Shown here: positions 14,150-15,343 of the stretch, one piece after another | Layout of the letters: every line of letters begins with the position of its first letter | Position numbering within the stretch: position 1 is the first letter of the stretch | NCBI GenBank assembly: GCA_021399345.1 | Contig: JAAFKI010000147.1 | Coordinates: 1 to 21,535, forward strand | Reading direction: 5' to 3' | DNA length: 21,535 bases | DNA from: Candidatus Heimdallarchaeota archaeon | Lineage (GTDB): Archaea; Asgardarchaeota; Heimdallarchaeia; Heimdallarchaeales; Heimdallarchaeaceae | Notes under the pieces: model-generated | The model's input: the letters and a program-made list of their open reading frames with translations, nothing else | Told to the model about the DNA's origin: nothing | The model's database searches: none | Translations under genes and position numbers: made by a program

Positions 14150-15343
14150 ATGGCTAATACACAAGAGAAAGAAGACAGTAAACCTACTGCTTCTAGTAAG
14201 AAAAAGACTGTTAAGGAAGAGAAAGATGCTCTTCAAGACTTCTTGTTAGGTATTACAGGGCTCTCTGATAGTATGAAGAAGAGAGTTCATAAAGTCCTTA
14301 ATACTGAAGGTATAATTGATCCGCGAGGTATTAAATCTTTAACCAATAAACAGCTTGAGGAACTACCTGGTATTACTGAAGCAACAGCATCTCTCTTGCT
14401 TGATCAATTTAAAACAAAACAAGAAGGGAAAATCTTCCTTTCATTAGAGGAGAGAGAGGAATTAGAGACTGTAAGGTCAAAGATTAAAACAGGTGCTAAA
14501 GCTTTAGATGACCTTCTCCAAGGAGGTATTCCAACTGGAACATTCGTCGAGCTTTATGGAGCCCCTCAGTCAGGTAAAACTCAGCTTTGTTACACTATCA
14601 CAGCCAACTGTCTACTTCCGAAAGAATATGGAGGGCTTGAATCAGGCATAATTTGGTTGGATACAGAAGGATCTTTTAATTCACAGAGGCTTAAACAAAT
14701 TTTATCTTATTACAAATACACTCACAACATTCCAGATGACAAGATTGATACTGGAAAATTCATGGTTGCAGCTACTCGAACTTTATCGCAAATCGAATTG
14801 GCTCTCAAAGAAGCGGGAAGAATTATCGCTAAGAACAAAGTGAAACTGCTTATCGTTGACAGCCTAATGGACCCCTTTAGAGCAGAATATGGCGGACTAG
14901 GTCAATTAGCAGATAGACAAAAACATCTCAATAGAGTATTGCATTTACTCATGAGAATTGCTGAGGCGTGGGATTTAGCTGTTCTTTATACTAACCAAGT
15001 TATGGCCAACCCGGATCCTTTCGCAACTGCAATGGACAAGGTTTTACCCAGCGGAGGCTTTATTTTAGGCCACGCTTCCGATATTCGCATTTGGCTTCGT
15101 AGAGCTACTAGTAAGATACGCAATCAGTACGATGCCCAAAATGCGCGCAGAGCTCTTATCACAGATTGCGGTTGGTTACCTATGACTGAAACTCACTTCT
15201 CTTTAGGTCCCTTTGGAGTCTGTGATGTAGATGAAGAAGCTAAACTTCGCGATTTAGCTCTAGAGATTGGTCTTGGTCTGGATTCTGAAGAAGACGAATT
15301 AGAGGAAGAAGAACTCGAGACAGAATTTGCTAAAATAGAGTGA
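14150..15343 (+). CDS. radA: DNA repair/recombination protein of the RadA/Rad51 family (divergent paralog)
   Basis: N-terminal (HhH)2 domain (LEELPGITEATA), IKTGAKALDDLLQGGI, Walker A ELYGAPQSGKTQL, LPKEYGGL, WLDTEGSF, Walker B LLIVDS, L1 FRAEYGGLGQLADRQKHL, TNQVMANPD...GGFILGHAS. Confidence 0.93.
   Translation: MANTQEKEDSKPTASSKKKTVKEEKDALQDFLLGITGLSDSMKKRVHKVLNTEGIIDPRGIKSLTNKQLEELPGITEATASLLLDQFKTKQEGKIFLSLEEREELETVRSKIKTGAKALDDLLQGGIPTGTFVELYGAPQSGKTQLCYTITANCLLPKEYGGLESGIIWLDTEGSFNSQRLKQILSYYKYTHNIPDDKIDTGKFMVAATRTLSQIELALKEAGRIIAKNKVKLLIVDSLMDPFRAEYGGLGQLADRQKHLNRVLHLLMRIAEAWDLAVLYTNQVMANPDPFATAMDKVLPSGGFILGHASDIRIWLRRATSKIRNQYDAQNARRALITDCGWLPMTETHFSLGPFGVCDVDEEAKLRDLALEIGLGLDSEEDELEEEELETEFAKIE

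Follow-up and report, generated by a model that had tools for sequence, protein, structure and literature searches.

A divergent RadA paralog of Heimdallarchaeia with altered DNA-pairing residues, encoded beside a canonical RadA

Introduction

Eukaryotic recombination relies on one or two catalytic recombinases together with several non-catalytic RAD51-type helpers, and no known archaea are more closely related to eukaryotes than the Heimdallarchaeia. Here, we describe a RadA/Rad51-type gene at positions 14150-15343 of a 21,535-nucleotide stretch of Candidatus Heimdallarchaeota DNA (contig JAAFKI010000147.1 of assembly GCA_021399345.1, positions 1 to 21,535 of the forward strand; the window in all that follows). 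Judged from its sequence, this gene encodes a selected, full-length, and ATPase-competent RadA paralog beside the canonical RadA of the same genome, and the protein lacks residues on which duplex capture and strand exchange depend in canonical Rad51. The name RadA-D was coined in this work for the protein and for the clade that it represents.

The closest described systems are archaeal RadA and eukaryotic RAD51. Self-association of these proteins characteristically depends on an FxxA motif whose Phe and Ala enter two small pockets, of which the Ala pocket is shallow (PMC5117717). In the RAD51 D-loop, the displaced strand is captured by R303, K304, 305-GRG-307, K313, and R130, and the arms of the donor duplex are anchored by Lys residues of the second HhH helix (PMC12360782). 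Mutations of these elements are instructive: Schizosaccharomyces pombe Rad51 R257A (equivalent to human R235 in loop L1) has lost strand exchange, pairing, displacement, and binding of double-stranded DNA (dsDNA) while ATP binding and presynaptic filaments stay normal, and a site-II double mutant of the same protein is also devoid of exchange (PMC7289862). Similarly, the RAD51-II3A variant (R130A, R303A, K313A) binds DNA and makes no D-loops (PMC6764946). R257A and rad51-II3A both form filaments without strand exchange (PMC7289862, PMC6764946).

Several RecA-fold proteins with accessory roles have been described besides these recombinases. The eukaryotic RAD51 paralogs (RAD51B/C/D and XRCC2/3, or Rad55-Rad57) are, like RadA-D, extra RecA-fold proteins, which the titles of PDB entries present as mediators or filament-end caps, and Rad51 as an accessory factor to Dmc1 is another parallel. 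RadB and aRadC are accessory RecA-fold paralogs found beside RadA in archaea, but they have no counterpart of the N-terminal domain and linker that RadA-D keeps. In eukaryotes, HELQ, a helicase of the Hel308 family, associates with RAD51 as well as with the BCDX2 paralog complex (PMC13623763). For Asgard archaea, Matsuo et al. 2025 reported two RadA clades and a RadA duplication in Heimdallarchaeia and relatives after "highly divergent" sequences had been taken out before tree building (PMC12722695). Compared to these two clades, RadA-D forms a further, long-branch clade, of which we found no description in the literature searched.

RadA-D retains the architecture and ATPase core of RadA

The open reading frame (ORF) at 14150-15343 on the plus strand translates (table 11) into a full-length RadA/Rad51-fold protein of 397 residues (P0001) with the following parts:

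14150-15343, plus strand: RadA-D (P0001), ORF with a Pfam Rad51 match of 2e-53 over residues 111-359
14150-14227, plus strand: K/E-rich N-terminal extension, residues 1-26, predicted to be disordered (predicted local distance difference test, pLDDT, 38-68)
14228-14419, plus strand: N-terminal helical (HhH-type) domain, residues 27-90, with five predicted helices from H27-33 to H77-90
14435-14446, plus strand: polymerization-motif position F96-L-S-L99 (FxxA elsewhere), aligned with FRNA and FINA of paralogs and with FTTA of human RAD51
14558-14581, plus strand: Walker A, G137-APQSGK-T144, with an intact P-loop; the site-II Arg (human R130) is Gln140
14846-14863, plus strand: Walker B, LLIVDS, with the catalytic-type E173 upstream in LDTEGSF
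14879-14920, plus strand: loop L1, R244-Q257, with R244, Y247, R256, and Q257 retained; the Arg of GRG (human R235) is Leu250
14999-15064, plus strand: loop L2, VMANPDPFATAMDKVLPSGG, of canonical length and strongly conserved among orthologs; residues 286-305 are disordered in the monomer model
15104-15145, plus strand: remade tip of the site-II beta-hairpin with a nine-residue insertion, ATSKIRNQYDAQNA, opposite a gap of 9 in RAD51 and RadA
15227-15268, plus strand: extra C-terminal helix, residues 360-373, past the canonical RadA end (pLDDT ~96) and common to the D clade
15269-15340, plus strand: disordered acidic tail (pLDDT 45-71) with the conserved tip TEF[AV]x[ILV][ED]

RadA-D shares its three-part architecture and its fold with archaeal RadA (Pyrococcus furiosus, 1PZN; Saccharolobus solfataricus, 2BKE), as well as a RecA-fold ATPase core with Walker A, Walker B, and the catalytic Glu, loop L2, and the filament Phe. 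The N-terminal HhH domain and its linker to the core are evident both from the helices of an AlphaFold2 (AF2) model and from the span of Foldseek alignments, which at up to 334 columns are longer than the ATPase core alone; model confidence in this domain is high (pLDDT 83-94 over residues 31-90), and Pfam HHH_5 matches it below threshold (E 7.7e-4). Overall, the AF2 model (pLDDT 83, predicted template modeling score 0.81) has a helical N-domain, a confident core, a disordered L2, and a disordered acidic tail, and the structure that Foldseek ranks first for it is a RAD51 chain of a D-loop filament (9i62_E, TM 0.87, rmsd 2.9 Å). Across 108 aligned sequences, G142, K143, D171, E173, D237, S238, R244, R256, Q257, T281, N282, G303, H308, and R313 are invariant, and F96 and D339 are nearly so. 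Consequently, the ATP site, the trans-acting Asp, and the residues of L1 and L2 that touch the backbone of single-stranded DNA (ssDNA) are intact.

Unlike archaeal RadA, RadA-D carries FLSL at the polymerization motif, GLG in L1, the hairpin insertion, DCGW after the hairpin (where canonical RadA has DSP), the extra C-terminal helix, and the acidic tail. These motifs do not arise by chance, given that about 30 orthologous clusters of 49-94% identity keep F-x-[ST]-L, G[AS]PQ[SA]GK[TS], YGGLG, the insert, and CGWLP, and the next matches beyond them fall to ~40% identity. Not every deviation is equally telling. The Walker A sequence GAPQSGKT that an initial annotation of this ORF had pointed out is indeed present, but the GEF(G/R)(S/T)GKT with which it had been contrasted is not universal; DPANN RadAs read GAYGSGKS, which makes this change the least diagnostic feature. 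Similarly, the K/E-rich N-terminal extension noticed at the time is there, but a comparable K-rich extension is also found on the canonical RadA of the same genome (P0002, see below).

DNA-pairing residues of RadA-D are lost or rebuilt

The L1 sequence G248-G-L250-G-Q has its Leu250 codon at 14897-14899, precisely where the initial annotation had placed a Leu instead of the Arg of G-R-G that is R235 in human RAD51. Leu occupies the same position in D-type proteins of three families of Heimdallarchaeia (f1, to which the genome of the window belongs, f4, and f7), and loss of the L1 Arg is therefore an old trait of the clade. The insert SKIRNQYDAQN is likewise real, and its exact placement at the GRG hairpin of site II, which had been missed, matters more than the Walker A change. 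It comprises S321-N331 (15110-15142), is exactly nine residues longer than the equivalent segment of three paralogs from the same genome, human RAD51, and Sulfolobus RadA, and stands where RAD51 has 305-GRG-307 at the hairpin tip. AF2 predicts a short helix there (residues 321-327) between strands 312-318 and 332-340, at pLDDT 94-97. Within the remaining site-II set, R303 and K304 persist as the basic residues R317 and R318, R130 is replaced by Gln140, and K313 by Leu336 just downstream of the hairpin-tip segment, in addition to the missing GRG tip. The second HhH helix reads TASLLL in RadA-D and its genus g1, without the Lys or Arg found in paralogs (TAKRLI, AAKKYK, EAIKVI).

In its lost L1 Arg, altered site II, and intact ATP site, RadA-D resembles the S. 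pombe R257A and rad51-II3A mutants of Rad51. Unlike these engineered eukaryotic variants, it is a natural paralog with a rebuilt hairpin, a changed polymerization motif, and a tail, known here from its sequence.

The same genome encodes a canonical RadA

The source assembly (G000; 3.27 Mb, 88.6% complete) contains five RadA-family genes according to a homolog search, namely RadA-D and four more (loci L002-L005 on contigs C30, C41, C110, and C194). Close homologs of RadA-D are labeled Heimdallarchaeaceae or Heimdallarchaeota in their sources. The initial annotation had proposed that RadA-D is not the housekeeping RadA but a specialized second recombinase or a mediator, a view that would have been untenable if RadA-D were the only radA of the genome and its substitutions were standard for the housekeeping RadA of the lineage. 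However, a canonical RadA exists in P0002 on contig C30 (374 aa, with FRNA, GEFRTGKT, and AGRGS). P0004 on contig C110 (455 aa) has a doubled HhH region, FINA, and GRG, and P0003 on contig C41 (318 aa) has PVTA, GGFGSGKT, and GKE; P0005 is a RadB-like protein of 215 aa, and the second RadB-like gene of the genome is P0126. With the NCBIfam RadA model NF003301 (cut-off 259 bits), P0002 scores 437 bits, P0004 360, and P0003 338, and all three pass, whereas RadA-D fails at 215.5. Since the canonical radA coexists with RadA-D and the substitutions of RadA-D define a separate paralog clade (see below), the specialized assignment is supported and RadA-D is not the housekeeping copy.

Archaeal RadA is still the best-scoring NCBIfam family for RadA-D, yet the protein stays below every equivalog cut-off tested (TIGR02236 RadA, 191.9 vs 361; TIGR02239 RAD51, 183.7 vs 478; TIGR02238 DMC1, 180.8 vs 448). 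Against solved RadA structures it reaches 151-156 bits, about half of the 324-358 bits of P0002. More specifically, phmmer searches of the PDB give P0002 358 bits with Pyrococcus RadA and 284 with human RAD51, compared to 151 and 156 for RadA-D, and human RAD51 and Sulfolobus RadA tie at 156 bits each. RadA-D is therefore about equally far from archaeal and eukaryotic recombinases. It is much nearer to RAD51 and RadA than to XRCC3 (87.7 bits) or RAD51B (82 bits) and hence RAD51-like (RAD-alpha type) rather than RAD-beta. It is no RadB either, having 397 aa with an N-domain instead of a core-only ~210-240 aa and a TIGR02237 score of 95.8 vs 172.4.

A specific likeness to RAD51 and DMC1, which had been suggested on the grounds of the sequences RQKHL and HASxxRIxLR, did not hold up. 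The RadA, RAD51, and DMC1 models score RadA-D alike (192-215, 184, and 181 bits), and neither these scores nor the PDB ranking support a particular affinity. HAS..R..LR is no RAD51/DMC1 signature because ordinary archaeal RadAs carry it too, and in RQKHL only the His matches RAD51 (RQMHL), a His that is not common to the clade.

RadA-D forms an old clade under purifying selection

A careful maximum-likelihood tree (77 rows, 333 columns, LG+C20, built without eukaryotic RAD51, DMC1, and RAD51 paralogs) places RadA-D, its orthologs, and more distant relatives in a separate clade with a support of 99/100 and a stem length of 0.83, apart from the clades holding P0002, P0003, and P0004. This clade is recovered in 99% of the bootstrap trees and also in a quick tree, and it has members in four families of Heimdallarchaeia (f1, f3, f4, and f7). 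The clades of P0002, P0003, and P0004 are each well supported as well; the 77-row tree gives no resolution for the mutual order of the Heimdall paralog clades or for their relation to non-Asgard RadAs and the outgroup, and the parent paralog of clade D is not identifiable in it. Members of the P0003 clade have lost the filament Phe (P-x-T-A) and carry GKE in L1, and those of the P0004 clade have a doubled HhH N-terminal region.

According to motif tables, the D clade is marked by a non-Arg residue (Leu or other) at the L1 Arg position, by DC[GA]W/F after the hairpin, and by the C-terminal helix extension. Loss of the L1 Arg is clade-wide, the hairpin insertion is found in f1, f3, and f4 but not in f7, and the A-to-L change in the polymerization motif as well as the change of K313 to L/M are seen only in f1. 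Within this family, 22 of the 30 other genomes have a RadA-D ortholog, covering all five genera and including two single-contig genomes. The reading frame is open in all orthologs across the five genera, and dN/dS values of 0.084 (window vs G013) and 0.045 (G004 vs G007), both from unsaturated pairs, indicate strong purifying selection.

The sampled Heimdallarchaeia have 2-7 RadA-like genes per genome, mostly 3-6. In three f4 genomes (G021, G023, and G025), the homolog search found no P0002-type canonical RadA, although one may still exist given a completeness of ~87%. Besides a B-type and a C-type copy, G021 and G025 each encode a D-like protein of 352 aa that keeps FKKA and is devoid of the L1 Arg. 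G023 has only two RadA-like matches, none of which is D-like.

Polymerization motif and acidic tail

The reading of FLSL instead of FxxA at 14435-14446 was confirmed by the alignment with FRNA, FINA, and FTTA. The defined FxxA motif requires Phe and, at position 4, one of the small residues Ala and Gly (PMC5117717); RadA-D keeps the Phe, and position 4 is always Leu in the f1 orthologs, compared to Ala or Gly in the other clades. The Pro of the Ala pocket (human P168) is Ser in RadA-D and Ser or Thr in most f1 orthologs. A compensatory change of this pocket was considered and rejected, given that covariation is not clean: the P168 position is non-Pro in D-type proteins that keep FxxA and Pro in G035. 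A two-copy complex prediction of RadA-D scored 0.00, which gives no verdict either way.

The acidic tail noticed in the initial annotation is present at the C-terminus as D378-E392 (15281-15325, DSEEDELEEEELETE), followed by FAKIE, and the net charge is -15 over the 42 residues from G356 to the end. It is not a clade-wide feature, being basic in P0037, and the tip TEF[AV]x[ILV][ED] is conserved only in genera g1 and g9. The tip shares an F-x-x-aliphatic pattern with the linker motif, which suggests, as an idea only, that it could be a self-mimic like BRC repeats. Bacterial RecA likewise has a disordered acidic C-terminus, which is autoinhibitory in that protein; the tail of RadA-D is non-homologous, follows the extra helix, and has the TEF[AV]x[ILV] tip.

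Gene neighborhood of RadA-D

The surroundings of RadA-D in the window comprise the following features:

1841-8755, plus strand: conserved four-gene operon upstream of RadA-D, encoding a RadB-like ATPase, a 164-aa protein, a 1044-aa protein, and a helicase
6563-8755, plus strand: the helicase, a divergent Ski2/Hel308-like protein (NCBIfam Hel308, 154 bits vs a cut-off of 1200)
8825-13873, minus strand: two NosD/right-handed beta-helix surface-protein genes between helicase and RadA-D
14118-14125, plus strand: TATA-like box TTTATATA, ~28 nt before the ATG, as read from the DNA
15341-15356, plus strand: RadA-D stop codon, overlapped by a Shine-Dalgarno-like (SD-like) GAGGGGAG, with the giant gene starting at a TTG 10 nt further on
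15354-21533, plus strand: giant Ig-repeat protein of >2060 aa (~2100 in relatives) with a signal-peptide-like N-terminus (Pfam Big_1, Big_3_5, CarboxypepD_reg)

The helicase lies directly upstream of RadA-D in G001, G004, and G005, and the NosD/beta-helix pair is missing at that spot in these three genomes and different in G007, G011, and G016. The site between helicase and RadA-D therefore varies in its insertions, and the DNA contigs of a related strain likewise depart from the window just upstream of 14149. In the closed g12 genomes, the blocks are permuted and those of helicase and RadA-D are still adjacent. Both genes are present in 20-21 of the 31 f1 genomes and both are missing from 6, with the other 3-4 (all of them fragmented metagenome-assembled genomes) being discordant. 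A helicase is also found 1.4 kb from the D-type RadA (~35% identical to RadA-D) in f7, in convergent orientation and 27-29% identical to the helicase of the window. In the two f7 loci L101 and L102 (G075:C89 and G081:C26), a D-like RadA of 437-449 aa is followed by a 446-449-aa gene and then by the convergent ~750-aa helicase; this RadA has a long mixed-charge tail, keeps FQKA, and has no hairpin insert. The genome of the window also has a nearer Hel308 match on contig C161, at 634 bits and thus under the cut-off of 1200 as well.

Besides the helicase, the upstream operon encodes a RadB-like/KaiC-like ATPase of 358 aa (gene 1; TIGR02237, 5e-15) and a 164-aa protein with a PD-(D/E)xK nuclease-type fold (gene 2; AF2 pLDDT 84, Foldseek match to 3dnx with E 3.7e-6, weaker matches to Hjc and RecU), in which D51 and E66-A-E68 are invariant. 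The 1044-aa product of gene 3 has HerA/VirB4-like language-model matches of 0.89-0.90, a degenerate-looking Walker A (ILIAGDKKTRE), and a weak RPA_C-like winged helix, and there was no Pfam match when the HerA/VirB4 link was examined; we treat this assignment as a lead only. DNA import systems of the Ced/Ted type, which were considered for this cluster, combine a VirB4/HerA-type ATPase whose P-loop is active with a membrane protein resembling VirB6 and a pilin resembling VirB2 (PMC9905601).

All f1 orthologs examined, even where RadA-D follows the helicase gene directly, have an A/T box at the same distance from the start codon, and we infer a separate promoter for RadA-D and an mRNA that is leaderless or nearly so, with a predicted start near 14148. 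The giant gene is its conserved downstream neighbor. The stop/SD junction is similar in G001, G004, G005, and G007 (GAGGTGAG, GGAGAGGAG; gap of 2-15 nt) and is kept in genera g1 and g9, while g12 has three genes in between. Two libraries labeled as metatranscriptomic and flagged "probably DNA" yield short contigs over 14197-14880 and over parts of the giant gene, and they are unusable for transcription.

Proposed role of RadA-D

It seems fairly probable to us that RadA-D binds ATP and ssDNA, joins or forms RadA-type assemblies, and serves as a helper or regulator, likely together with the neighboring helicase. RadA-D would then be a functional extra member of the RadA/Rad51 family that arose by an old duplication within Heimdallarchaeia, still binding ATP and ssDNA and assembling in a RadA-like manner, with the residues for pairing with or opening the donor duplex gone or rebuilt (Leu in L1, a helical insert for GRG, R130 to Gln, K313 to Leu). 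With these residues gone or rebuilt, it most likely does not exchange strands in the canonical way. It would probably be a non-catalytic or accessory component of filaments instead, one that nucleates, caps, stabilizes, or restrains RadA filaments or protects ssDNA, and it would probably work with the divergent Hel308-like helicase, for which the link of HELQ to RAD51 and its paralogs is a parallel that implies no claim of homology. More speculatively, the A-to-L change in FxxA and the F-x-x-[ILV] tip of the acidic tail may set partner specificity or mediate self-inhibition.

Several observations weigh against such an accessory role or against parts of it. The mutants in question are of eukaryotic Rad51, and over its long evolution the clade may have restored pairing by means of other residues; the insert and its flanks are still basic (K322, R324, R317-R318, R333-R334), and L2 remains conserved. 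FxxA is retained (FKKA, FQKA) by the D-type relatives in f4 and f7, and some of them keep equivalents of K313 or R130, so the loss of function would not be uniform across the clade. The link to the helicase is one of gene neighborhood: no helicase neighbor of the D-type RadA was seen in the examined neighborhoods of f3, f4, or G034, and the co-occurrence counts overstate independence because the genomes are related. Finally, the 6 genomes of the genus without both genes indicate that the role is dispensable.

The points on rebuilt pairing lead directly to the foremost alternative, a true second recombinase whose rebuilt L1 and site II give it an altered substrate preference or fidelity and which serves DNA handled by the helicase/nuclease/surface-protein cluster, for example, DNA from another cell. 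The full architecture, the intact ATPase, the conserved L2, and the retention of Y247, R244, and R256 would all fit a recombinase, as would the strong conservation of the insert with its basic residues, the strong purifying selection, and the predicted promoter of a gene that heads an operon with a surface protein. However, a single Arg-to-Ala change in L1 is enough to abolish exchange by Rad51 (PMC7289862), and RadA-D has in addition lost the hairpin GRG, K313, and R130; in genus g1, the N-domain is also without the basic residues of the second HhH helix. We therefore regard an active second recombinase as rather unlikely.

Its neighbors could also place RadA-D outside homologous recombination altogether, as a DNA-dependent ATPase or scaffold for DNA uptake or export, for membrane-tethered DNA processing, or for defense. 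It is co-directional with and lies 10 nt upstream of the gene for a giant secreted Ig-repeat protein; the cluster has a membrane protein, the PD-(D/E)xK-fold protein, and the 1044-aa HerA/VirB4-like lead; and the helicase also matches Hachiman HamB models in a module that is missing from 6 genomes. Yet PADLOC returns no system match beyond a generic helicase, the locus is chromosomal and syntenic across genera, the HerA/VirB4 assignment is just a lead, and the D clade occurs in f3 and f4 without the cluster and keeps the DNA-binding residues of recombinase filaments, which together render a role outside recombination improbable. Defense systems proper were rejected on the grounds that PADLOC gives only generic HamB/helicase matches and a weak mad8 P-loop match, and a virus or mobile element on the grounds that PHROGs matches are limited to generic families (UvsX-like, DNA-repair-protein, and DnaB-like helicase) and that synteny is chromosomal. 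A decaying duplicate without function, to which the long stem branch and the failed NCBIfam RadA cut-off might point, is excluded as a pseudogene by the dN/dS of 0.05-0.08 and can practically be dismissed in view of the open frame in orthologs of five genera, the invariant ATPase residues, and the confidently predicted fold.

Returning to the accessory role, one extension that we consider bold and improbable in its entirety is that a dedicated second recombination pathway centers on RadA-D and the divergent Hel308-like helicase, with an exchange-dead paralog that mediates or restrains RadA on envelope-handled DNA, for example, DNA exchanged between cells via the giant adhesin and the HerA/VirB4-like protein. 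If true, this pathway would prefigure or parallel, in archaea, the eukaryotic division of labor in which a catalytic recombinase is distinct from the accessory RAD51-type proteins that work with HELQ. Irrespective of this extension, the old RadA-D clade has naturally lost residues whose mutation makes Rad51 filament-forming but exchange-dead. It would thus be a concrete case of recombinase subfunctionalization in organisms other than eukaryotes and offer biochemistry a natural separation-of-function variant, relevant to recombinase evolution near the origin of eukaryotes, and its genomic ties to surface proteins and a Hel308-like helicase may bear on DNA exchange or repair in uncultured Heimdallarchaeia cells. 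Current annotation as "AAA family ATPase" or plain "RadA" hides the distinct nature of this protein.

Additional copies in individual genomes

Two genomes have more than one copy of RadA-D. G005 has, besides an intact ortholog that is 73% identical to the protein of the window, a second, broken copy with TGA stops (G005:C119:23130-23811) that is 91% identical to it, and G016 has two intact copies (on C126 and C37) of ~80% identity. These odd copies possibly reflect strain mixture, contamination, or transfer between species.

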